Shown one piece after another: positions 44 to 12,450 of a stretch of DNA of 12,450 bases. The DNA is from an uncultured Aquificales bacterium (GTDB lineage Bacteria; Thermosulfidibacterota; Thermosulfidibacteria; Thermosulfidibacterales; Thermosulfidibacteraceae): the NCBI GenBank assembly GCA_964453345.1, contig CAYVOC010000040.1, positions 1 to 12,450 of the forward strand, written 5' to 3'. The notes under the pieces are model-generated. The model did not search any database. It saw nothing but the letters and a program-made list of their open reading frames with translations, and was not told the DNA's origin. The translations under genes and the position numbers were made by a program. Numbering within the stretch: position 1 is the stretch's first letter; the number at the start of each line of letters is the position of its first letter.

Positions 44-604
44 ATGGGCCAAGGGGTTAAAGAGAGGATACTGGAGGCTGCAGAAAAGCTCTTCTTTGAA
101 AGGGGATATGAGGCAACTGGCATAAGGGATATAGCTGCGGCAGCCGGCGTCAACAGCGCCATGATTCACTACTACTTTGGGGGCAAGCGCAATCTTTATA
201 AGGAGCTGCTCTCCTCTCACCTTGATGTTCTTGCCTCCCAGATCTCCCGTATAGAGGCGGAGGATGAGAGGGAGTTCATAAAAAGATTTATGAGGCTTCA
301 CATAGAGATCCTCAGAAAAAGGGGACCCCGTCTTGCTGTTATTATGATGAGGGAGCTGAGCGCCAAGACCGAGGTCGGCAAGGAACTCTTTGACGGTTTT
401 ATGGCGGATCTTGGTGAGGTGCTTGGAAGGGTTATCTCGTCGGGCAAGGAGAAGGGGTTTTTTAGAAGGGATCTGCCGGATAGGCTGATTCTGGTTTTTT
501 TGATTCATGTTGATGCGCTTCTCGCCATAAGGTTTCCGGAAGTTGACTTGGATGAAGCGGTGGAGCTTGCATACACCCTCTTTATGAACGGGGTGGGAGA
601 ATAA
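44..604 (+). CDS. TetR/AcrR family transcriptional regulator
   Basis: 186 aa with an N-terminal TetR HTH signature (ILEAAEKLFFERGYEATGIRDIAAAAGVNSAMIHYYFGGKRNLY). First gene of an efflux operon. Confidence 0.95.
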   Translation: MGQGVKERILEAAEKLFFERGYEATGIRDIAAAAGVNSAMIHYYFGGKRNLYKELLSSHLDVLASQISRIEAEDEREFIKRFMRLHIEILRKRGPRLAVIMMRELSAKTEVGKELFDGFMADLGEVLGRVISSGKEKGFFRRDLPDRLILVFLIHVDALLAIRFPEVDLDEAVELAYTLFMNGVGE

Positions 605-606
605 CC

Positions 607-1860
607 ATGCTTGCGGTGCTGTTCGCGCTTATCTTTTGCTCTGTCTCCTTTTCACAGCAGCTTGGACTCAGGGAATCGGTTATGTATGCGCTGAAGAACA
701 ACCCTGAGATAAGGGCCTATATGGCTCAGGTGAGGATGCAGGCGGGCAGCGCTAAGCTCGTCTCTTCGGAGTTTTTCCCCACCCTTTCGTGGGAGTTTGA
801 TTATACCAGAAGCGGTGGTTCCGGTATTTCCCCTTGGGATCTCTATTCCTACTCCTTTGTGGCCGAGTGGGAGGTCTTTTCCGGCTTTGAGACGCTGAAT
901 CGGTGGAGGGCGGAGAGGATTCTGATTGAGGCCGCAAAGGGCAATCTCAGGAGGGTTATGCTTGATGTCGCCCTTGATGTGGTCAGGTTCTATTCGGAGG
1001 CCCTTGCCGCCCGATACAGGGTCGTTGCCGCCGAGCATTACGTTAAGAGTGCCGAGTATAGCTACCGGCTTGCCCTCGCCAGATACAGGGCCGGTTTGGC
1101 CCCGTGGGCCGATGTTCTTTATGCGAGGTCCAAGTTGAAGGAGGCGCGCTACAAGCTCGTGGACAGCAAGAGGGATTACGGTGTGGCCAAGGGGAATCTG
1201 GCTTCCGTTATGGGGATGGATCCGGGGAAGGTGGAGCAGGTGGAGTTGAGGGAGGTTTCCCCCGTTCTTGCTGATTTTTCCTTCAGATCCCTTGAGGAGA
1301 AAGCCGTTGAGCTTTCCCCCGAGATCAGGGCTGAAAAGAAAAGAATAGATGCTCAGAAAAAAAAGATTGCATCCGTTAAGGGAGAATATATGCCAAAGGT
1401 TTCCCTTTACGGTCAGTGGAAGAGAGAGGACGAGTCCTTGTTTCCGGATGATCGCTCGCTCTGGAGTTTGGGGGTCAGGGTAAAGCTTCCCATCTTCACG
1501 GGTTTTTCCACCCTTAGAAAGATCAGGGTTGAGAGGGCGAGGCTGCTCTCCTTCACCAGTGATCTAAGGAAGGCGGAGCTTGAGGTGAAAAGGAGGCTCT
1601 GGGAAGCGTATCAGGATTATCTGAAGGCCAAGGAGAGGCTTGTGGCCTCCAAGGAATACTGGGAGGCTTCCAAGGAGAGCTACAGGATTATGGAGAAGAA
1701 ATACCGGGTGGGGCTTGCCTCTATTGTGGATCTGGCTTCGGCGCAGGCCGATGTGTATGATGCGGAAAGCTCCTATTATAAATCGCTCACCGATGTGGTC
1801 TTTCATTATTACAGACTTGTGAGGGCTGTGGGAAGGATTCCCGTTGTTGAGGGGTTGTAG
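607..1860 (+). CDS. TolC family outer membrane efflux protein
   Basis: 417 aa with a Sec signal peptide (MLAVLFALIFCSVSFS). Two OEP-like repeats (ALKNNPEI...FPTLS...; AVELSPEI...YMPKVSL...LPIFTGF) and ARYRAGLA / KKYRVGLASIVDL motifs. Confidence 0.93.
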   Translation: MLAVLFALIFCSVSFSQQLGLRESVMYALKNNPEIRAYMAQVRMQAGSAKLVSSEFFPTLSWEFDYTRSGGSGISPWDLYSYSFVAEWEVFSGFETLNRWRAERILIEAAKGNLRRVMLDVALDVVRFYSEALAARYRVVAAEHYVKSAEYSYRLALARYRAGLAPWADVLYARSKLKEARYKLVDSKRDYGVAKGNLASVMGMDPGKVEQVELREVSPVLADFSFRSLEEKAVELSPEIRAEKKRIDAQKKKIASVKGEYMPKVSLYGQWKREDESLFPDDRSLWSLGVRVKLPIFTGFSTLRKIRVERARLLSFTSDLRKAELEVKRRLWEAYQDYLKAKERLVASKEYWEASKESYRIMEKKYRVGLASIVDLASAQADVYDAESSYYKSLTDVVFHYYRLVRAVGRIPVVEGL

Positions 1861-1861
1861 G

Positions 1862-3037
1862 ATGGTGCTGAGGCTTCTTTTGATACTTTTTTTGGTTGCG
1901 GGTTGTTCTAAGGGAAGCAGGGAGCAGTTCAAACCTAAGGGTGAGGCCAGGGTGAAGAGGGGAAGCATCACCCTTGAGGTGACGGCTACCGGTGCGGTGA
2001 AGCCGCAGGTGGGTGCGAGGATAAAGGTGGGGGCAAGGATATCCGGTAAGGTTGAGAGGCTCTTCGTTCAGTCCGGGGATCAGGTTAAGAAGGGACAGCT
2101 CATAGCGATTATAGAGCACAAGGATCTTGAGGCCAGCATGCTCAACAGAAAGCACCGGCTTGAAGCTGCAAGGCAGAAGCTTGAGAAGATAAAGGAGACC
2201 TATCCCCTCAAGATAGAGTATCAGAAAGAGAGCGTTGATAGGGCGAGATCCGAGTATGAGCTTGCGGTGAAGGATTACGAGAGAATCAAGGCTCTGTATG
2301 AGGAGGGGCTTGTTTCCCAGAAGGATATGGATGATGCCCGAAGGGATCTTGAGGTAAAGAGAGCCGCATACTTTGCCGAGAGGGCGAGGCTAAGAGAGTT
2401 GAAGAGGGAGTATGAAAGGCTTCTTAAGGAGGCCAGGGCCGAGTGTGAGGCTGCCCTTCAGGCCTATGAGGAGGCCAGGGTCAGATACAGCTACGCCTTT
2501 ATATACTCGCCCATATCGGGGGTTGTCTCTTCTGTATCCACCCAGCAGGGGGAGACGGTGGTTGCAGGGCTAAACGCTCCCACCTTCATAACCGTGGTGG
2601 ATTTGAACAGGCTGCAGGTGGATGCCTATGTGGATGAGACGGATATAGGGAAGGTGAAGCCGGGCCAGAGGGCCACCTTTGTGGTTGACGCCTACCCGGA
2701 CAAGGTCTTTGAGGGGGTGGTGGATACCATATACCCGGGGGCTATTATCAGGAACAATGTGGTCTTTTACGATGTTAAGATAGATATAAAGACCCCCTAC
2801 TACGGGCTGTTGAAGCCTGAGATGACGGCGGATGTCACTATTGAGGCCGGCAAAAGGGAGAATGTGCTTGTGGTGCCCGCCTCGGCGGTTAAGGTTGGGC
2901 TTGACGGCAGATCCTATGTGATGGTGAAGGAGAAGGGCAGGTGGGTGAAGAGACGGGTAAAGACCGGATGGGAGAGTTCGGGCAAGGTTGAGATTGTTTC
3001 GGGACTGAAGGAAGGGGAGGTGGTTGCCCTTTGGTGA
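1862..3037 (+). CDS. MacA-like periplasmic adaptor (membrane fusion protein), predicted lipoprotein
   Basis: Barrel-sandwich/lipoyl halves (VGARISGKVERLFVQSGDQVKKGQLIA; IYSPISGVVSSVSTQQGETV), long coiled coil, VDETDIGKVKPGQ, LKPEMTADV and VEIVSGLKEGEVV. Start moved from 1844 to ATG 1862 (GAGGGG RBS at 1849-1854), which gives the lipobox LVAG|C. Confidence 0.93.
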   Translation: MVLRLLLILFLVAGCSKGSREQFKPKGEARVKRGSITLEVTATGAVKPQVGARIKVGARISGKVERLFVQSGDQVKKGQLIAIIEHKDLEASMLNRKHRLEAARQKLEKIKETYPLKIEYQKESVDRARSEYELAVKDYERIKALYEEGLVSQKDMDDARRDLEVKRAAYFAERARLRELKREYERLLKEARAECEAALQAYEEARVRYSYAFIYSPISGVVSSVSTQQGETVVAGLNAPTFITVVDLNRLQVDAYVDETDIGKVKPGQRATFVVDAYPDKVFEGVVDTIYPGAIIRNNVVFYDVKIDIKTPYYGLLKPEMTADVTIEAGKRENVLVVPASAVKVGLDGRSYVMVKEKGRWVKRRVKTGWESSGKVEIVSGLKEGEVVALW

Positions 3038-3699
3038 TAGTGAGGATGAGGGGGATCAGGAAGGTTTACAGCATGGGCTCTGAGAGCTTGGAGGTGCTAA
3101 AGGGGATCGATTTTGAGGTGAAAAAGGGGGATTTTATCGCCATAATGGGGCCTTCAGGTGAGGGAAAAAGCACCCTCATGAACATTCTTGGGTGTTTGGA
3201 TAGACCCACTTCAGGCGAGTATCTCTTTGAAGGGGTGAATGTGCTCTCCCTTTCGGACAGGGAGCTTTCCAGGCTGAGAAACCGCAGGATAGGGTTCGTC
3301 TTTCAGCAGTTTCACCTTATCCCCTGGGCGACGGCCCTTGAGAATGTGCTTTTGCCCCTTGTGTATAGGGATGGGATCACGGAAGAGGGCGTGAAGAGAG
3401 CCAAGAGTCTTCTTGAGAGGCTGGGACTCGGGCACAGGATGGATTTTAAGCCGTCCCAGCTTTCTGGTGGGCAGCAGCAGAGGGTTGCCATAGCCCGCGC
3501 CCTTGTGGGGGAACCCTCCTTGATACTTGCCGATGAGCCCACGGGCAATCTCGATGCTGCATCCAGCAAAGAGGTCATGGATATATTTTCGGAACTTAAC
3601 AGGGAGGGAACCACCATAGTGATGACCACCCATGACCCCGAGACCGCAGGCTACGCTAAGACTGTCAAGCAGTTGAGAAATGGCAGGTTCGTTGAATAG
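3031..3699 (+). CDS. ABC transporter ATP-binding protein (MacB/LolD-type, stand-alone NBD)
   Basis: Walker [11 protein letters not shown]-loop FVFQQF, signature [15 protein letters not shown], Walker B/D-loop [11 protein letters not shown] and H-loop TTHD. Start is TTG 3031 or GTG 3034 (GTGA overlap with the upstream stop). Confidence 0.95.
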
Positions 3700-4897
3700 G
3701 GTAAGGAGTGTCTTCAGGGAGGCTACCTCGGAGCTTTTCTCTTCAAAGTTGAGCCTTTTTTTTATGTCCTTCGGGCTTGTGGTGGGGATATGTGCAATAA
3801 CCGCCATATATTCTGTGGGGAATGGAGCCAAGATCACCGTCTATCGCATCCTTGAAAATCTCAACTTCGGGTCCAATGCCTTTTTGATTCTGGCGGGGGG
3901 AGGCAAGTTCTTCGGCCCTTCCGCCACCAGAATGGACAGATTCAAAATGAGGGATGTTCGGGATATTAAGAAGTTTGACTTTGTTGTGGATGTTTCCCCC
4001 GTTCAGCTCGGTATGATGGAGGTGTCTTCCGCCAAGGAGGCCGGGATAACCAGGGTGTTGGGGGTGTTTCCGGTTTACGCAACTGTGAACAACTGGACGG
4101 TGGCCAAGGGGAGGTTCATAAGCGATGCGGATATAAGGCTGAAGAGGAAGGTATGCGTTCTCGGGTATGAGACTGCGGAGCGGCTTTTCGGTAAGCCGGT
4201 TCTCGGCAAGAAGATAAGGGTCAACGGGGTTGCCCTTGAGGTGGTGGGAATCCTTGAGAGAAAGGGAGTGATAGGCAGTTACCATCTTGATGAGAGGGTG
4301 CTGATTCCCTTCACCACGGCAAAGGATAGAATCTTCAACAAGGACTGGATCGATGCGGCAAAGGTTCTTTTGAAGAAGGATGTTGATTTTGTGAAGGCCA
4401 AGCGGCTCATAAGGGAGCTGCTCAGAAGGAACCACAAACTTTTGCCCAACGAGGTGGACGATTTCAGGATTATAACCCCGGATCAGATAATGCGTTTTCT
4501 GACCAAAGCCACCACCACGCTTACCGCACTGCTTGTGGCCATATCCCTCATCACCCTCGTTGTGGCAGGCGTCATCATAATGAACATCATGTATGCGGTT
4601 GTGGAGGAGAAGAAAAAGATAATAGCCCTGAGGAAGGCCTACGGTGCCACCAACGGGGACATTGTTATGCACTATCTTTTCATCACGGGAATGGTGGCGC
4701 TTGTGGGCTTTGTTGCCGGGTATGGGTTGGGGAACGCCGTAACCCTTCTTGTTGCAAGCCTAAGTCCCATAGATGGCTACTACAGCCTCAGTGTGGGTGC
4801 TGTGGGGTTGCTGCTGTCTTTTGTCACCTCCGTGGGCTTCGGTATTGTGCCGGCCAGATCCGCTGCGAAGCTTCCACCTGCGGAGATCCTTAAATGA
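3680..4897 (+). CDS. ABC transporter permease (MacB/FtsX family), paralogue 1
   Basis: 405 aa with an N-terminal TM helix and a large periplasmic domain (GRFISDAD...VCVLG...IPFTTA). Three C-terminal TM helices with IMNIMYAVVEEKKKIIALRKAYGA and PARSAAKLPPAEIL. Confidence 0.92.
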   Translation: MAGSLNRVRSVFREATSELFSSKLSLFFMSFGLVVGICAITAIYSVGNGAKITVYRILENLNFGSNAFLILAGGGKFFGPSATRMDRFKMRDVRDIKKFDFVVDVSPVQLGMMEVSSAKEAGITRVLGVFPVYATVNNWTVAKGRFISDADIRLKRKVCVLGYETAERLFGKPVLGKKIRVNGVALEVVGILERKGVIGSYHLDERVLIPFTTAKDRIFNKDWIDAAKVLLKKDVDFVKAKRLIRELLRRNHKLLPNEVDDFRIITPDQIMRFLTKATTTLTALLVAISLITLVVAGVIIMNIMYAVVEEKKKIIALRKAYGATNGDIVMHYLFITGMVALVGFVAGYGLGNAVTLLVASLSPIDGYYSLSVGAVGLLLSFVTSVGFGIVPARSAAKLPPAEILK

Positions 4898-6108
4898 AAG
4901 GTTACGCCTTCAGGCTGAGATACGGGGCTCTCTTTTACAAAAAGAGGAGGCTTTTTCTTTCCATTCTGGGCGTGGTTATCGGGGTTGCGGCCATAGTGGT
5001 GATGGTTTCCGTGTCCGAGGGATCAAAGGCGAAGCTGATGAGGGAGTTTGAGACCTTCTCCCCGGATACCCTGACGGTTGTTGCCGGAAGAGTCCGCCTC
5101 AGGGGAGGGCGCCCCATAACCACCGAAAAATACACTACATTGAAACTGGAGGATGCGTGGTCCCTCGAGGGCATATTCGGGGTGGTCAGGGTGGCGCCTG
5201 TGTATGAGGGCAGTGTGGTTGCCGAGTATGGCGAGAACAGCATGAGGGTGACCGTTGTGGGAAGCACCCCTCAAATTTTCGCCATAAGAAGGTATAAAAT
5301 GGCCTACGGCAGGATCTTCACCTATGCAGAGGCCATGAAGAACGGGAAGGTGGCGGTTATAGGGTATAAGGTCTGTCAGGAGCTGTTTGGCTGCAGGGAT
5401 CCCGTAGGGAAGAGGATCAGAATAAGGAAGCTGCCCTTTCTCGTTGTGGGGGTCATGGAGAAGATGGGAACCGATGCGAGCGGCAGGGATCTGGACAGCC
5501 AGATCATAATACCTATAAGTTCTGCCACCAACAGGGTTTTCAATGTTGATCACATATCCTCCATCTTTGTTCAGGTGGCCTCTGAACTCTTTCTGCAGGA
5601 TGTCTCCGATAATGTGGCCAGAATACTTAGAAAGAGGCACGGGATAAGAAAGGGCTTCCCTGATGATTTTTCTGTGCTCAAGGCCGAGGAGATTTTGAAA
5701 AACAAAGAGCGATCGGCCATGATCTTTTCCATCTTCACAATAAGCATAGCTTTTATCTCAATAATTGTTGGGTCCTTCGGGGTTATGGCGGTTATGATCC
5801 TTTCTGTCAGGGAGAGAACGGTGGAGGTGGGCCTGAGGAAGGCCCTGGGAGCCACGGAATTTGATATAGTTAAACAGTTCCTCCAGGAGTCAGCTGTTAT
5901 AACTCTGTTTGGTGGAATTGCAGGATCGGTGCTGGGGATAATGATGAGTTTTGTTGCATCAAAATTATTTAAGTATCCCTTTGTGCTGTCTCCCATCTAT
6001 CTTTTGCTTTCCCTTCTTATTGTTGTTGCCCTTGGAATTGTTGCGGGAATATACCCCGCCAGGAAGGCTTCAAAGGTTGATCCCGTGGTCAGCTTGCGGG
6101 GAAGTTGA
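4894..6108 (+). CDS. ABC transporter permease (MacB/FtsX family), paralogue 2
   Basis: 404 aa. LSILGVVIGVAAIVVMVSV, SVRERTVEVGLRKALGA and GIYPARKASKVDPVVSLR are canonical MacB motifs. ATGA overlap with the previous gene. Confidence 0.94.
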   Translation: MKGYAFRLRYGALFYKKRRLFLSILGVVIGVAAIVVMVSVSEGSKAKLMREFETFSPDTLTVVAGRVRLRGGRPITTEKYTTLKLEDAWSLEGIFGVVRVAPVYEGSVVAEYGENSMRVTVVGSTPQIFAIRRYKMAYGRIFTYAEAMKNGKVAVIGYKVCQELFGCRDPVGKRIRIRKLPFLVVGVMEKMGTDASGRDLDSQIIIPISSATNRVFNVDHISSIFVQVASELFLQDVSDNVARILRKRHGIRKGFPDDFSVLKAEEILKNKERSAMIFSIFTISIAFISIIVGSFGVMAVMILSVRERTVEVGLRKALGATEFDIVKQFLQESAVITLFGGIAGSVLGIMMSFVASKLFKYPFVLSPIYLLLSLLIVVALGIVAGIYPARKASKVDPVVSLRGS

Positions 6109-7770: not shown

Positions 7771-7787
7771 TTTACTGAGGGGGTTTG

Positions 7788-8780
7788 ATGTTTGATGGAA
7801 AGGTTGTTCTGGTTACGGGAGGGACGGGTTCCTTTGGCAGGAAGTTCATAAGGTATGTGCTTGAGAACTATGAGCCTGAAAAGGTCATAGTATACTCCAG
7901 AGACGAATACAAACAGTATATAATGCAGCAGGAGCTTGGGGACTTCGCCCCCAGGCTCCGTTTTTTTATAGGTGATGTTCGGGATAAGGAGCGCCTCTAC
8001 AGGGCCTTTGTTGGAGTTGACATAGTTATTCACGCTGCCGCTTTGAAGCATGTGCCCTTGATGGAATACAATCCCATAGAGGCCATCAAGACCAACATCC
8101 ACGGTGCCATAAATGTGATTGACGCTGCCTTGGACAGGGGGGTTGAGAAGGTGATCGCCCTTTCAACGGATAAGGCGGTCAATCCGGTGAACCTCTACGG
8201 TGCCACAAAGCTTGTCTCCGATAAGCTTTTCGTTTCCGCAAACGCCTATGCAGGCAAGGGGCGCACCCGCTTCGCCGTTGTCAGATACGGGAACGTTGCG
8301 GGAAGCAGGGGATCGGTTATCCCCTTTTTCATGAGGCTTGTGAAGAATGGAGCCAGGGAGCTTCCCATAACCGATTTCAGAATGACCCGCTTCTGGATAA
8401 CCCTCGATGAGGGGGTGAGGCTCGTTGAGAGGGCTGTCAGAGAAGCCAAGGGCGGTGAGATATATGTGGCGAAGATCCCCTCTTTCAGGGTGGTTGATCT
8501 TGCAAGGGCCATATGCCCTGACTGTCGGTTGAAGGAGGTGGGGATAAGGGAGGGGGAGAAGCTTCACGAGGTTATGATAGCCGAGGAGGACGCAAGAACA
8601 ACCTACGAGTATGAGGATCACTTTATCATCTACCCCCAGCATCGCTGGTGGAACTGGGATGTGAAGCCCGGGGGCAGAAAGGTTCCCGAGGGTTTCAGAT
8701 ACTCCTCGGACAAGAACGACAGATGGCTTGGGGTGGAGGAGCTGAGGGAGCTGCTCGGCAAGATAGATGTGGTGATGTAG
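7788..8780 (+). CDS. pseB: UDP-N-acetylglucosamine 4,6-dehydratase (inverting), PseB
   Basis: GGTGSFG Rossmann motif, SRDEYKQ, HAAALKHVP, LSTDKA, YGATK catalytic motif, RYGNVAGSRGSVIPFF, MTRFWITL and GIREGEKLHE. ATG 7788 follows a GAGGGGG RBS (TTG 7785 is an alternative start). Confidence 0.93.
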   Translation: MFDGKVVLVTGGTGSFGRKFIRYVLENYEPEKVIVYSRDEYKQYIMQQELGDFAPRLRFFIGDVRDKERLYRAFVGVDIVIHAAALKHVPLMEYNPIEAIKTNIHGAINVIDAALDRGVEKVIALSTDKAVNPVNLYGATKLVSDKLFVSANAYAGKGRTRFAVVRYGNVAGSRGSVIPFFMRLVKNGARELPITDFRMTRFWITLDEGVRLVERAVREAKGGEIYVAKIPSFRVVDLARAICPDCRLKEVGIREGEKLHEVMIAEEDARTTYEYEDHFIIYPQHRWWNWDVKPGGRKVPEGFRYSSDKNDRWLGVEELRELLGKIDVVM

Positions 8781-9923
8781 ATGAGGTTTATCCCCTACGG
8801 CTGGCATTACATAGATGATGAGGACATTGATGCGGTCGTTGAGGTGCTGCGATCCGGCTACCTGACCCAGGGGCCAAAGCTTTCCGAGTTTGAGCGTGCC
8901 CTCGCCCAATACTGCGGTGCGAGGTTCGCCGTCTGCTTTTCAAGCGGAACAGCCGCTCTGCATGCGGCCTACTTCGCCCTCGGACTTGGAGAAGGAGATA
9001 AATTTATAACCACCCCCATTACCTTTGCCGCCACCGCCAATGCCGGGCTGTATCTGGGGGCAAGACCGATCTTTGTGGATGTTGAGCCGGATACGGGAAA
9101 CATACATCCCGATCTTATAGAGGGCGCCTTGACCGATGATTGCCGCCTGATAAGCGTTGTGCACTATGCCGGGCATCCCGTTGATATGGAGAGGATCTGG
9201 AGCATCGCCCGGAGGTATAATCTGAAGGTGGTTGAGGATGCCTGCCATGCCCTTGGCGCCCGCTATAGGGGTGAGCCTGTGGGATGCTGCCGGTATTCCG
9301 ATGCTGCTGTATTCAGCTTCCACCCGGTGAAGCACATCACCACCGCCGAGGGAGGGGCAGTTCTCACCAACGACGAAGAGGTTTATGAGAAACTGCTGCT
9401 TTTCAGAAACCACGGGATAACCAGAAATACAAAAAGATTCCTCTATCCCAGCCACGGCCCCTGGTATTACGAGATGCAGTTTTTAGGCTACAACTACAGG
9501 ATGAATGAGCTTTCCGCGGCCCTTGGAATCAGCCAGCTGAGGAAGCTGGATCTCTTTGTGAGAAGAAGAAGGGAAATAGCCTCCTATTACAGCGAAGCCC
9601 TTTCCGATTTGAAGGGGGTTATGCTTCCCGTGGAAAGGGACTACGCGAAGTCTTCCTATCACCTCTACGTCTTGAGGCTGAAGGGTGATTTTGCGCACAG
9701 AAAAGGGGAGATCTTCTCCAGGCTCAGGGAGATGGGGCTTGGTGTCCAGGTGCACTACATCCCCGTTTATTTGCATCCCCACTATCGCAGACTCGGGTAT
9801 ACACCCGGTCTGTGCCCTGCTGCTGAGGACTTTTACAGAAGGGTCCTTTCCATTCCCATATACCCTGCCATGAGTGATGATGATCTTTTTTACGTGGTGG
9901 ATTGCTTGAGAAAGGTATTATAA
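8781..9923 (+). CDS. pseC: UDP-4-amino-4,6-dideoxy-N-acetyl-beta-L-altrosamine transaminase, PseC (DegT/DnrJ/EryC1/StrS PLP family)
   Basis: IPYG...IDDEDI, LTQGP, EDACHALGA, SFHPVKHITTAEGG (PLP lysine), FRNHGI, GYNYRM and GVQVHYIPVY. Directly abuts pseB. Confidence 0.92.
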   Translation: MRFIPYGWHYIDDEDIDAVVEVLRSGYLTQGPKLSEFERALAQYCGARFAVCFSSGTAALHAAYFALGLGEGDKFITTPITFAATANAGLYLGARPIFVDVEPDTGNIHPDLIEGALTDDCRLISVVHYAGHPVDMERIWSIARRYNLKVVEDACHALGARYRGEPVGCCRYSDAAVFSFHPVKHITTAEGGAVLTNDEEVYEKLLLFRNHGITRNTKRFLYPSHGPWYYEMQFLGYNYRMNELSAALGISQLRKLDLFVRRRREIASYYSEALSDLKGVMLPVERDYAKSSYHLYVLRLKGDFAHRKGEIFSRLREMGLGVQVHYIPVYLHPHYRRLGYTPGLCPAAEDFYRRVLSIPIYPAMSDDDLFYVVDCLRKVL

Positions 9924-9943: not shown

Positions 9944-9982
9944 AAGGCATATCTGTGAGGAATCCATCTGGAGGTGTGAGGG

Positions 9983-10960
9983 ATGGTGGATCTTGTCCCC
10001 TATAGAAAGGGTGTTTATGCAAGTTTCCCCACCTTCGTGGAGCACAATGGATACGTTTACATCTACTACAGGGAGGGGAGAAAAAGCGTCTATCAGGTGC
10101 ACGGTCTCTTCGGCAAGGTGAAGCGCATAAAGGTTTCTTCTTCCGAGTTTATAAAGATGCTTGAGGGGGAGCCTGCAGGGGAGTTTGATGTCAGGGTGGT
10201 CTTCTCCGACAACGACAACGAGCTCGACGCCATAGTGTCAAAGCTTGATGACAATCTTTACTCCCTCTGCACCAGGGTCTCTCTCGTGGGCAAGAGAAAC
10301 GACTGCTATGTCTCCTTCAACAGCGAGCCCGAGTTTAAAGAGAGGCAGCTGGTAAGAATAAGGGGCTTGAGGATAGATGCCTTTTACGGCAAGGCCTTCA
10401 GGTCCCCCCATGGCTATATCTTTCCTGCATACGGATGGTTTGAAAGAGACGGTGAGCAGAGGCCCCTGCTTCTTGTGACGGACACCGAAAAATGGGATGT
10501 GCTCTCATACCTTCCCACCCGCATCAACGGCAACAGACTGAATGAGAGCAGCGTGGTCTATCATCAGGGCGTATGGCACATATTCATGAGGGAGGATGAT
10601 CCGCCCTACGGAATATGGTGGTCCCATTCGGCGGATCTGGTGCACTGGAGCAGTCCCCAGAAGCTCTTTTCAAAGGCCCACGCTCCCATGGCCTGTGTGG
10701 TGAACAACGAGATCCTTCTGGCCTTCAGATATCTGCTCGGCAGAAACAGGCAGGCCGTTGCCTACACCTATCCCTTCTCGTCAAGGATCATACAGATAGC
10801 CGACACCTACTTGGGAGACATGTTCGACGGCGGGTATGCGGATATCGGGGTGGTCAACGGAAGGCTCATCGTGGTATACTACTGGGGCAACACAAGCGGA
10901 AGCCCAACGATCAGATGCAGGATCATAGGCGCCGTGGAGGAGATGGAAAAGGTTGCTTAG
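9983..10960 (+). CDS. Sialidase-like (BNR/Asp-box) beta-propeller protein, no signal peptide; function unknown
   Basis: 325 aa, beta-strand rich, with a GGAGGTG RBS at 9970-9976. Motifs: YASFPTF...YYREG...H; NESSVV...HIFMRE; degenerate Asp-box SHSADLVHWS; C-terminal DGGYADIGVVNGRLIVVYY. This resembles the layout of sialidase/BNR_2-type propellers. Confidence 0.7.
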   Translation: MVDLVPYRKGVYASFPTFVEHNGYVYIYYREGRKSVYQVHGLFGKVKRIKVSSSEFIKMLEGEPAGEFDVRVVFSDNDNELDAIVSKLDDNLYSLCTRVSLVGKRNDCYVSFNSEPEFKERQLVRIRGLRIDAFYGKAFRSPHGYIFPAYGWFERDGEQRPLLLVTDTEKWDVLSYLPTRINGNRLNESSVVYHQGVWHIFMREDDPPYGIWWSHSADLVHWSSPQKLFSKAHAPMACVVNNEILLAFRYLLGRNRQAVAYTYPFSSRIIQIADTYLGDMFDGGYADIGVVNGRLIVVYYWGNTSGSPTIRCRIIGAVEEMEKVA

Positions 10961-10981
10961 AAAGCTTGTCGGGGGATGAGA

Positions 10982-12450
10982 ATGAGGGCTGTGGCCTTTG
11001 TCCCTGTGAGACTCACATCAACCCGGCTTCCCGAAAAGCACCTGAAGTTTATAGGAGATAGAACCCTCTTTTCCTGGGTCATTTCGAGGCTCAAGGCCTG
11101 CAGAAACCTTGATGAAATAGTCGTGTGCGTTCCCGATGAGCCGGAAAGCGAAAAGCTGAAGCCTTTGTGTGATAAAGAGGGAGTTGAGCTTTTCATCTAC
11201 GAGGGCGATGTGAACGATGTTGTGGGAAGGCTCACCACGGCGGCGAAAAGATACAATGCGGACATATGCGTTCTTGCAAGCGGCGACTGTCCCCTGTTAA
11301 GCCCCTCAACCATAGATATGCTTGTAGGCTTCCTGAAGGAGCATCCGGATGTGGATATCGCCTACATCGAACCCCTTGACGGAAAGCCGCCCATACACGA
11401 GGGGATATCCGTTGCAAGAAGGCATGTCTGGGAGCTTGCGGATAGATACTCGGATACCCCGGAGCTGCGGGAGCATCAGTTCCCCGTTCTGGGGGTTTAC
11501 CCTGAAAAATTCGCGCACCTTAAGCGGGCGGGACTCAGAGACAAGGAGATCTTCTACAGGCTGAAGCACAGGATCTCGGTGGACACGCCGAGGGATCTTG
11601 AGTTCATGAACGAGTGCTACAGAAGGCTCAAAGAGAAGGGAAAAGAGTTCACCCTTGAGAATGTGATAGAGCTTTTGCAGGAGAACCCCGATCTTATGAA
11701 GATAAACGCCCATGTTCATCAGAAGGGGCTTCACGAAAAGAGCTATAAGGTCCTTTTTGTGGTGAGCGCCGTTGGGGACTACGGATACGGCAACCTTGTG
11801 AGAAGCCTTGAGATCGCGGACAGGTTGGTGAGCATGGGGGTGGGCGTAAGATTTTTTGTCTTTGACCATGAGGCAAAGAGAATGTGTGAGGAGAGGGCCT
11901 TTCATGCAGAGATCATAGGGGAGCTTTCGGAACTCGCTTCAAAGGCGGCCAGCTACCACATGGTGATCTTTGATCTAAACAGAGACATAGCCCTTGAGGA
12001 AGGGCTGGTTGAGCGCGTCAAAGAGTATGGCAAGGTTGTGGTTATAGACAACACCAGCCCCGGTGCTCTGAAGGCGGATCTGGTGATAATTCCCACTGCC
12101 CACTATACGGGAGAGGATCGCAATAATCTGATCTGGGGGCCGGAGTATGTGGTTGTATCGTCCGATGTGATGAAGGCCAAGAATAAAAATGTTCCCAAGC
12201 GGGACGTGGTTCTTGCAAGGGTTGATGAAGAATACCAGGATTGCGTGGAGCTTTTGTGGAAGAAGGTTGAGTTTGTCCGGGGTTTTGGCAGGGATTTTGC
12301 CGAAAGAATCAAGGGGGCAAGACTTTGCGTTTTCCATTTAGGACTTTCCTGCTATGAAGCCCTCTATCTTGGCACGCCCGTAGAGATTATCCCGAGAACC
12401 CCTGAAGAGCTGCCCGAAATAGAGGCCTTCTACAGGTTCGCCCATTCAGG
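10982..12450 (+). CDS. Fusion of SpsF/PseF-type cytidylyltransferase and PseG/SpsG-like GT-B domain (3'-partial; not in ORF track)
   Basis: My translation is open from ATG 10976/10982 to the window end. The N-terminal ~250 aa read MRAVAFVPVRLTSTRLPEKHLK...GDVNDVVGR...SGDCPLL...REHQFP...RISVDTPRDLEF...ENPDLMKINAHVHQK (SpsF-like). From ~11740: KVLFVVSAVGDYGYGNLVRSLEIA...VIFD...VVVID...DLVIIP...GPEYVVV...GLSCYEALYLGTP (PseG/SpsG-like). Confidence 0.88.
   Translation, partial: MRAVAFVPVRLTSTRLPEKHLKFIGDRTLFSWVISRLKACRNLDEIVVCVPDEPESEKLKPLCDKEGVELFIYEGDVNDVVGRLTTAAKRYNADICVLASGDCPLLSPSTIDMLVGFLKEHPDVDIAYIEPLDGKPPIHEGISVARRHVWELADRYSDTPELREHQFPVLGVYPEKFAHLKRAGLRDKEIFYRLKHRISVDTPRDLEFMNECYRRLKEKGKEFTLENVIELLQENPDLMKINAHVHQKGLHEKSYKVLFVVSAVGDYGYGNLVRSLEIADRLVSMGVGVRFFVFDHEAKRMCEERAFHAEIIGELSELASKAASYHMVIFDLNRDIALEEGLVERVKEYGKVVVIDNTSPGALKADLVIIPTAHYTGEDRNNLIWGPEYVVVSSDVMKAKNKNVPKRDVVLARVDEEYQDCVELLWKKVEFVRGFGRDFAERIKGARLCVFHLGLSCYEALYLGTPVEIIPRTPEELPEIEAFYRFAHS

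Follow-up and report, generated by a model that had tools for sequence, protein, structure and literature searches.

Many bacteria carry pseudaminic acid (Pse) and related nonulosonic acids (NulOs) on their flagella, pili, and capsules. The canonical Pse pathway consists of six enzymes (PseB, PseC, PseH, PseG, PseI, and PseF), of which PseB, PseC, PseG, PseH, and PseI are named by equivalog models applied here; its six steps are treated as complete and are studied as an anti-virulence target. Described proteins of the sialidase fold include the GH33 exo-sialidases NanH (8ub5) and NanJ (8url) of Clostridium perfringens and the Pseudomonas aeruginosa pseudaminidase PA2794 (2w38/3h6j), which is assigned to Pse rather than N-acetylneuraminic acid (Neu5Ac) and, to our knowledge, is not encoded among pse biosynthesis genes. 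A sialidase-like subunit also acts on a 2-keto-3-deoxy acid sugar within a biosynthetic route: the hydrolase acting on Kdo (3-deoxy-D-manno-octulosonate), called KdhAB or KdoH1-KdoH2, of Francisella, Helicobacter, and Legionella trims Kdo after its transfer during lipopolysaccharide (LPS) synthesis (PMC3573668). Here, we analyze X, a 325-aa open reading frame (ORF) at positions 9983-10960 of the forward strand of a 12,450-base stretch of DNA (the window) from an uncultured Aquificales bacterium of the family Thermosulfidibacteraceae (GCA_964453345.1, contig CAYVOC010000040.1, here C40). X sits in a Pse biosynthesis operon without being part of the canonical six-enzyme pathway, and its product appears to be a biosynthesis-associated, cytoplasmic branch of the sialidase fold. 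We tentatively read it as a Pse-specific hydrolase or hydratase that would edit the glycosylation of flagellin or salvage decayed sugar, returning free sugar to PseF. A literature search that did not cover the primary PA2794-structure and Kdo-hydrolase papers found no study of the X family.

Fold and relation to sialidases

In single-sequence searches, X (library protein P0001) had no match among Pfam and NCBIfam models (E <= 0.01) or among Protein Data Bank (PDB) sequences. An AlphaFold2 (AF2) model built from an alignment of 32 homologs is all-beta (pLDDT 94.5, pTM 0.92), with 24 strands forming six four-stranded blades. Foldseek searches of the PDB ranked Dfer_1899 of Dyadobacter fermentans first (5hx0; E 7.5e-11, TM 0.75), followed by GH33 sialidases with probability 1.00; the P. 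aeruginosa pseudaminidase 2w38 was matched with a TM of 0.71 and 16% identity to X. VIA-align, a fold search independent of Foldseek that covered 48,161 chains, likewise returned 5hx0 (Z 32.4, root-mean-square deviation 2.8 over 304 residues, 15% identity), C. perfringens NanH (Z 30.0), the 3h6j pseudaminidase (Z 29.5), and about twenty further sialidases and trans-sialidases, together with one KDNase, at Z 25-29, the Trypanosoma rangeli trans-sialidase scoring 28.6; unrelated six-bladed propellers (TolB, PknD, NHL, and lactonases) reached Z <= 21. The model and the GH33 matches in both fold searches thus bear out the sialidase-type beta-propeller that a preliminary description of this DNA had proposed from the sequence and had suggested checking with AlphaFold and Foldseek.

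Sequence similarity points in the same direction. A 38-sequence family profile that included distant members detected NanJ with E 2.1e-4 and NanH with E 0.18, and the distant member P0079 matched the Porphyromonas gingivalis sialidase (E 1.6e-6) and 5hx0 (E 7e-6). The BNR_2 domain (PF13088) was not found in X; it was weakly matched by 5/32 family members (best E 6.2e-4), and its gathering threshold of 31.4 bits was reached by five of the 22 distant representatives scanned (P0071, P0077, P0079, P0082, and P0084), with P0083 at exactly 31.4. A language-model atlas places X among 'hypothetical' and BNR_2 clusters, and the automatic annotation of some database entries in the family reads 'sialidase family protein', 'exo-alpha-sialidase', or the like. 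The predicted fold, together with a sequence similarity that is weak but significant, places X in the sialidase (GH33) superfamily. The five-bladed fold of GH43, GH130, and GH32, an idea raised by a weak profile match to 7fip (E 0.036), by weak GH43 matches in 2/32 members, and by source annotations like 'Glycosyl hydrolases family 43', was rejected because the AF2 model and both fold searches indicate a six-bladed GH33 propeller.

The best structural match, Dfer_1899, has no functional label. It shares an NE...R...R...GY pattern with P0079, but it is only 15% identical to X and is about 40 residues longer at the N-terminus, its crystal chain starting at residue 44. The match to PA2794 covers the propeller alone (X model residues 1-322 against residues 12-335 of 438), and X, at 325 aa, lacks the C-terminal trimerization domain of the 438-aa PA2794; moreover, neither X nor the family profiles gave an HMMER match to 2w38 or 3h6j. 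The active site of PA2794 is also non-canonical. By sequence and by architecture, X is not a PA2794-type pseudaminidase.

Conserved residues and putative active site

Across 38 sequences, down to 23% identity, the residues R30, H40, G41, G44, D82, R98, R121, E188, R203, A234, P235, R249, G283, Y285, Y300, and P308 are invariant. In the DSSP topology of the model, A strands start at S14-F15-P16 (blade 1), E80/D82 (blade 2), E188 (blade 4), H233-A234-P235 (blade 5), and Y285 (blade 6), whereas B strands end at R30 (blade 1), R98 (blade 2), R203 (blade 4), R249 (blade 5), and Y300 (blade 6). By this topology all of these key residues lie on one propeller face, the exception being R121 in the C-D loop of blade 2. 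Strand topology and the GH33 alignment together suggest that the conserved residues converge on the sialidase active-site face.

The sialidase-like motifs listed in the preliminary description all lie where it had placed them, on the forward strand. YASFP (residues 12-16; 10016-10030) starts blade 1 and, by motif and topology, puts Ser14 at the place of the Arg of the GH33 (F/Y)RIP motif. Within the family, the motif reads Y-x-(S/A)-F-P-T: the RIP-Arg position is Ser or Ala in all 37 sequences that have the N-terminus (37/37) and never Arg, in agreement with the earlier remark that this Arg is missing. The invariant His40-Gly41 (10100-10105), in the B-C loop of blade 1, follows 26 residues past Ser14, and His40 is a candidate general acid/base; we take the acid/base Asp of sialidases to be expected 24-26 residues after RIP, a place that His40 occupies in X. 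NELD (residues 79-82; 10217-10228) contributes the invariant Asp82 at the start of blade 2.

A significant sequence correspondence to a sialidase lies in blade 4. Asn187-Glu188 (10541-10546) opens this blade and is followed by FMR (residues 201-203; 10583-10591). The profile alignment pairs 'LNES...FMRED' of X with 'LTECQVV...FMRN' of NanJ (stretch i-Evalue 0.0035), placing E188 and R203, both invariant in 38/38 sequences, in the Glu and second-Arg region, and thereby upholding the NE...FMR block as a sialidase landmark. Presumably, Glu188 corresponds to the Glu that partners the nucleophilic Tyr in GH33 enzymes, and Arg203 to the second Arg of the triad. FRY (residues 248-250; 10724-10732), at the end of strand B of blade 5, carries the invariant Arg249, a candidate third Arg by topology; the sole sialidase alignment of this region, obtained via P0079, appears shifted by one blade. 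DGGY (residues 282-285; 10826-10837) starts blade 6 and provides the invariant Tyr285 as candidate nucleophile. At the end of strand B of the same blade, YYW (residues 299-301; 10877-10885) holds the invariant Tyr300 at the position where, judging by topology, we assume GH33 enzymes to have the Glu that clamps the first Arg.

The Asp-box-like character ascribed earlier to SHSADLVHWS (residues 214-223; 10622-10651) is upheld in part. The hairpin is present, in the C-D loop of blade 4, and is the sole Asp-box-like stretch of X, but it is degenerate and one residue shorter (S-x-D-L-x-x-W, residues 216-222), and X has no match to the Asp-box model PF02012 at E <= 0.01. Compared with NanH and NanJ, X thus retains the six-bladed propeller and the block of Glu and second Arg and has an invariant Tyr, the candidate nucleophile, at the start of blade 6, whereas it has Ser or Ala in place of the RIP Arg, Tyr300 instead of the expected clamping Glu, and His40 instead of the expected acid/base Asp, and it is devoid of canonical Asp-boxes, a signal peptide, a lectin domain, or any other extra domain. 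By its sequence, X appears to depart from GH33 exo-sialidases in three defining features: the first Arg, the canonical Asp-boxes, and possibly the acid/base Asp. The family would widen the known chemistry of the sialidase fold, having no first Arg and a His at the acid/base position. The additional invariant basic residues R30, R98, R121, and H40 could replace the lost first Arg or bind phosphate.

A non-catalytic sugar binder, anomerase, or scaffold handing Pse, or a Pse-bearing protein, to PseF or to the flagellin glycosyltransferase Maf would explain why the canonical first Arg, Glu clamp, and Asp acid/base are missing, and inactive lectins of the sialidase fold do exist, the Tyr342His trans-sialidase isoform 3pjq (so described in its PDB title) being among the Foldseek matches. 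However, lectin-like relatives typically lose exactly the Tyr, and the Tyr-Glu pair and two Arg residues of X are invariant down to 23% identity. The deep invariance of the residues predicted to hold and attack a 2-keto-3-deoxy acid sugar argues for catalysis over mere binding, and we regard a purely non-catalytic role as improbable. The same retained residues, suited to binding and attacking a 2-keto acid sugar, make the hydrolysis of a UDP-sugar, an option contemplated in the preliminary description, probably the least likely of the proposed activities.

Gene model, operon, and cellular location

X is far from a chance ORF, as shown by its 38 homologs with E values down to 1e-139. Its ATG is preceded by a Shine-Dalgarno-like GGAGGTG (9970-9976), read from the sequence, which ends 6 nt ahead, and by an in-frame TGA (9977-9979) two codons upstream. 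The library protein P0002 (335 aa, reported as 100% identical) has ten additional N-terminal residues and a Leu for Val at X position 2. The upstream start that it suggests is ruled out by the in-frame stop, which prevents any upstream shift of the X start; P0002 must derive from a near-identical but different sequence.

The assignment of X to the space between pseC and a cytidylyltransferase fusion holds. The first gene of the set, pseB (7785-8780), encodes the inverting UDP-N-acetylglucosamine 4,6-dehydratase (TIGR03589, 528.9 bits against a cut-off of 407.75; Polysacc_synt_2) and is followed by the aminotransferase gene pseC (8781-9923; TIGR03588, 517.6 bits, cut-off 423.5; DegT_DnrJ_EryC1). 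X itself, placed as a GH33-like six-bladed propeller by its homologs, model, fold searches, and NanJ profile match, is separated from pseC by 59 nt and from the downstream gene by 15 nt, with no small ORF in either gap. That gene (10976-12448) is a pseF-pseG-like fusion, with CTP_transf_3 at residues 7-170 and a divergent second half resembling GT-B hydrolases, which weakly matches the PseG model TIGR03590 (26.3 bits) at residues 258-409. With these gaps of 59 and 15 bases, PseB-PseC-X-PseF/G is read as a single operon. The fusion is open at its 3' end, where it runs off the contig; about 25-45 residues are missing, the ORFs of full-length relatives having 514 and 534 aa. No 20-mer overlap links the 3' end of the window to any other contig.

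The product of X lacks a signal peptide, as had been stated. Its N-terminus is not hydrophobic (the highest score of an 11-residue Kyte-Doolittle window within residues 1-45 is 0.68), all aligned family members (32/32) have the conserved FPT motif 11-25 residues from the start, and in the AF2 model the strand that closes the last blade is made of residues 2-5. On these grounds X is predicted to be cytoplasmic, and it lies in a biosynthetic operon, in contrast to GH33 exo-sialidases of catabolic nan loci.

Genomic association with Pse biosynthesis

The X family is rare, with 38 clusters in a collection of 5.8 billion proteins; an exhaustive search of 1.84 billion representatives yielded 55 matches at E <= 1e-3, of which 32 had E <= 1e-30. 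Its hosts are Aquificales, Nitrospirota, Desulfobacterota-like lineages, Heliobacteria, and Bacillus. Genes for NulO synthesis or flagellin glycosylation (NeuB, PseF, DegT, and Maf) adjoin X in 23/51 loci other than the window. The neighborhood survey that the preliminary description had called for thus supports an association with pse/neu genes, both in genomes (7/13 loci) and in metagenomes, where loci were found by a scan with alignment A1 and 16/38 have NeuB, CTP_transf_3, DegT, or Maf within 3.5 kb, three more being ambiguous. Because NulO islands make up well below 1% of a genome, chance does not account for such frequencies. Wherever the pathway can be typed, it is that of Pse, as judged by PseB and PseC equivalogs and by PseG or PseG-like domains.

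The arrangements vary widely. X is followed by PseF-G in L002/L017, and it ends the series GH57, NeuB, PseB, PseC, X in L003. In Desulfonauticus (L004), the order is transketolase-N, PseF-G, transketolase-C, X, SDR, and sulfotransferase; in Heliobacterium (L009), X, PseF, DegT, and a PseG-like gene; and in a member of the Nitrospirae (L013), HAD, NeuB, X, flagellin, and FlaG. Further settings are those of Bacillus salitolerans (L010: FliD, FlaG, DegT, dehydratase, X, NeuB, PseG with 290 bits, PseF, GNAT, and LuxC/LuxE) and of L007 (flagellin, Maf-TPR, X, WbqC, GNAT, radical SAM, cytidylyltransferase-aminotransferase, and NeuB). The most consistent group is the distant subfamily X' (26-32% identity to X), which has NulO or flagellin-glycosylation genes at 11/13 metagenome loci, in the arrangements DegT, PseF-PseG-like, X', ATP-grasp, NeuB; DegT, X', methyltransferase, B12-radical SAM, cytidylyltransferase; Maf ... 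X'; or X', cytidylyltransferase, epimerase. Overall, PseF or the PseF-G fusion is the immediate neighbor of X in 8 loci, and Maf adjoins X in L007, L046, and L056 and is one gene away in L066. A cytidylyltransferase joined to a highly diverged PseG-like half, which scores 26-40 bits where the cut-off is 153.55, occurs in the window and in L077, L078, and L004, and this fusion adjoins X or X' in L004, L069, L072, and L073.

These data bear on the possibility that X is a glycosidase or lyase for some other substrate (a different acidic sugar, a glycan of the cell envelope, or a UDP-sugar intermediate), its proximity to NulO genes reflecting general glycan islands. At about half of the loci no NulO gene is in view, as illustrated by the Desulfurella order YgjP-X-GGDEF, by MMPL-X, and by a nucleotidyltransferase toxin-antitoxin pair next to X; NeuB is common in general, being found in 9/14 control genomes; and single members weakly match GH43 and GH130 profiles. 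However, the fold is that of six-bladed GH33, not five-bladed GH43/130 proteins, the association holds in the distant subfamily, where DegT, PseF, NeuB, or Maf accompany X' at 11 of the 13 loci, and a family member is fused to a cytidylyltransferase (P0064). X also co-occurs with PseB, both being absent together within one genus. We consider an unrelated substrate unlikely.

The phyletic pattern was examined in the source genome (1.51 Mb, 52% GC, 99.9% complete) and 60 relatives, 61 genomes in all. X is present in six of them (6/61), namely three of the four in the genus of the window and all three of one sister-family genus, and PseB scores above its curated cut-off in 13/61, including all six with X. 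The one member of the window genus without X (95% complete) is also without PseB. The pattern is suggestive of X traveling with the Pse pathway.

In the source genome itself, a NeuB/PseI gene (C24:1844-2803) lies next to a GH57 gene and scores below both the NeuB and PseI equivalog cut-offs. A profile search of this genome found no PseH above cut-off (best 29.2 bits, on C11) and no PseG-like sequence beyond the weak one in the window. Its pathway may differ from the textbook Pse route, or the genes may fall in assembly gaps. Four Flagellin_N-domain matches over cut-off identify flagellin-family genes, and a 657-aa Maf is encoded next to flaG on contig C63; the sugar made in this organism is most probably destined for flagellin.

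A natural fusion and its bearing on CMP-Pse

P0064 (608 aa) is a natural fusion of a CTP_transf_3 cytidylyltransferase (residues 5-223) to X (residues 299-599; E 1.6e-40) that keeps the His, the Glu, both Arg residues, and the Tyr of X. It came from the exhaustive library only, a word-based search for fused or longer forms of X having returned none. A predicted complex of X with the PseF domain gave no verdict (median score 0.29 against a mark of 0.32). The fusion favors successive reactions, in which X would either supply PseF with free Pse or use Pse activated by cytidine monophosphate (CMP).

In the latter case, X might be a CMP-Pse hydrolase, cleaving its substrate to CMP and Pse as a homeostatic valve on the pool of activated sugar. 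The active-site arguments for a Pse-specific hydrolase would apply equally, a cytoplasmic X would meet cytoplasmic CMP-Pse, and X lies directly upstream of PseF in the window, with PseF or PseF-G as its immediate neighbor in the 8 loci mentioned above. Nevertheless, a synthetase fused to the destroyer of its own product, as in P0064, would amount to a futile cycle, and the sequence of this fusion disfavors the CMP-sugar hydrolase option of the preliminary description. CMP-ulosonates already hydrolyze spontaneously (PMC7729866). A CMP-Pse hydrolase is thus a poor candidate, with little probability in our judgment.

Alternatively, X could be a retaining pseudaminyl-transferase that takes CMP-Pse as donor, forms a covalent Tyr285-sugar intermediate as Tyr285 displaces CMP, and, in the manner of a trans-sialidase, passes the sugar with retention to a flagellin Ser/Thr, to a first sugar, or to another Pse. 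The fusion fits a PseF product that is the substrate of X, X adjoins Maf and flagellin in L007, L046, and L056, the invariant R30, R98, R121, and H40 could bind the CMP phosphate, and with a good leaving group the canonical Asp acid would not be needed. Trans-sialidases have the same fold, and the GH130-like 'Uhgb_MS mannoside synthase', as worded in a PDB title, offers a precedent for a glycoside-hydrolase fold that uses a nucleotide sugar. On the other hand, Maf is present in the source genome and beside X in several loci, so that a second transferase is not required, and the propeller takes up all 325 residues, leaving no acceptor-binding extra domain such as TPR. We also know of no GH33-fold enzyme that uses CMP donors. 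Such a transferase activity is doubtful; if true, X would be the first sialidase-fold biosynthetic glycosyltransferase, a Leloir-donor 'trans-pseudaminidase' acting beside Maf.

Proposed role in editing or salvage

The proposal that we place first, with some reserve, is that X is a cytoplasmic, Pse-specific hydrolase or hydratase. Within the cytoplasm, a leaving group at C2 or a double bond between C2 and C3 would be offered only by CMP-Pse, by Pse that Maf has transferred to flagellin before export, and by the 2,3-dehydro sugar. From the conserved residues we infer the following substrate, reaction, and residue roles. The C1 carboxylate would be gripped by Arg203 and Arg249, with Arg30 and/or Arg98 assisting in place of the lost RIP Arg; Tyr285, activated by Glu188, would attack C2 to form a covalent sugar-enzyme intermediate; and His40 or Asp82 would act as general acid/base, water finally freeing pseudaminic acid. 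As substrate we propose a form of the sugar that is conjugated or damaged and arises in the cytoplasm, either Pse on over- or mis-glycosylated flagellin made by Maf or the 2,3-dehydro sugar from the decay of labile CMP-Pse, and the product would be passed to the neighboring CMP-sugar synthetase PseF. X would then be an optional editing or salvage accessory of flagellin pseudaminylation, outside the six core steps.

Hydrolysis or hydration is placed ahead of transfer because a Maf transferase already exists in the genome and beside X, because X is without an acceptor-binding domain, and because the trimming of a transferred keto-acid sugar by KdhAB is an established device of LPS synthesis. Editing is given a purpose by the reported donation of Kdo by Maf enzymes when the proper donor is lacking (bioRxiv 10.1101/2023.12.03.569772). 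The Kdo hydrolase would be the best functional analogy for this role, with two differences: the Kdo enzyme depends on a small partner in the inner membrane and has lipid A-bound Kdo as its substrate, whereas X has no such neighbor, and X also occurs in Gram-positives (Bacillus and Heliobacteria), which have no Kdo. Salvage could take the form of metabolite repair, a novel reading in which a hydratase would convert 2,3-dehydro-Pse from spontaneous CMP-Pse decay to Pse; the related CMP-Neu5Ac decays to CMP, Neu5Ac, and Neu5Ac2en (PMC7729866). Two proteins from the literature differ from X in fold: GlfM, a cofactor of Maf, is a four-helix bundle (bioRxiv 10.1101/2023.12.03.569772), and Csd6 of Helicobacter pylori, a proposed pseudaminidase, has an NTF2 fold (PMC4599014).

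Several observations weigh against this proposal. The preliminary description had placed the DGGY Tyr at the position of the sialidase nucleophile; its invariance and its location at the start of blade 6 stand, but 'GGY(x)D(L/I)' pairs with 'GGYSCL' of NanH in a non-significant stretch of -1.1 bits. The first triad Arg and its clamping Glu are absent from the X family, and carboxylate binding may accordingly differ or weaken. The invariant R30, R98, R121, and H40 would equally suit binding of the CMP-Pse phosphate, in favor of transfer from, or hydrolysis of, the CMP sugar. X is missing from 7/13 PseB-positive genomes and is therefore dispensable for Pse synthesis, and the relatives that have it belong to two genera and hence are not independent. 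Moreover, 6/13 genome loci have no NulO gene nearby (two Aquificales with X between ahpC and a thiamine-binding gene, one of them by fliFGHI; one Magnetocorallium; and three Desulfurella), and the same applies to 19-22/38 metagenome loci, many of them on contigs of 1.5-5 kb. In the Desulfurella type (L011, L012, L014, L048, L052, L059, and L060), there is a 4-nt overlap between X and the stop of a YgjP-like metallopeptidase-fold gene, and a convergent response-regulator diguanylate cyclase lies downstream, with no sugar gene nearby; the L012 genome has NeuB elsewhere, away from X.

The embedding of X in Pse operons across lineages and its fusion, in one case, to a CMP-sugar synthetase nonetheless imply an extra, undescribed step, which could be the trimming of flagellin before export, the salvage of decayed nucleotide sugar, or a new kind of transfer. 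X could also yield a specific pseudaminidase, a tool that glycobiology lacks. If X were a plain hydrolase with a minor housekeeping role, its importance would be moderate.

Accessory genes of X loci and other genes of the window

A split transketolase, encoded by an N-terminal and a pyrimidine/C-terminal gene, brackets PseF-G in a congener of the source organism (L077, on G002:C26) and in Desulfonauticus (L004). The same pair is found in the source genome at C55:3032-6051, where it brackets a nucleotidyltransferase and an NTase_sub_bind gene (MNT/HEPN-like), PseF-G being located by X instead. The presence of transketolase in a NulO cluster suggests an unusual modification of the side chain. 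Small Polbeta/NTP_transf_2 and NTase_sub_bind pairs resembling toxin-antitoxin modules lie beside X or within sugar clusters in L039, L040, L062, L004, and L066, as well as on C55. The gene of an ATP-grasp ligase (PylC-like_N/ATPgrasp_Ter) adjoins NeuB, or separates NeuB from X or X', in L041, L069, L072, L074, and L075, which hints at amino-acyl decoration of the nonulosonate; in L040, a 417-aa ATP-grasp-like gene follows X. In Candidatus Magnetocorallium, X is preceded by a 711-aa gene that combines an aminoglycoside-3-N-acetyltransferase-like part with DUF4910/DUF2172 and a winged helix (L008, 5848-7983) and is followed by a methyltransferase gene.

Every gene of the window, and hence of the entire contig, is on the forward strand. 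Ahead of pseB, these are, in order, a TetR gene, an efflux set, and a gene for a transporter of the lactate-permease family. TetR opens a complete but split MacAB-TolC-type set (44-6108) of mutually overlapping genes, which encode a channel resembling TolC (607-1860), an adaptor resembling MacA (1844-3037), a MacB-type ATPase that stands alone (3031-3699), and, as separate proteins, two MacB-type permeases (3680-4897 and 4894-6108). Bases 1-55 of the window are identical to the final 55 bases of contig C12; this k-mer overlap of the assembly places C12 ahead of C40.

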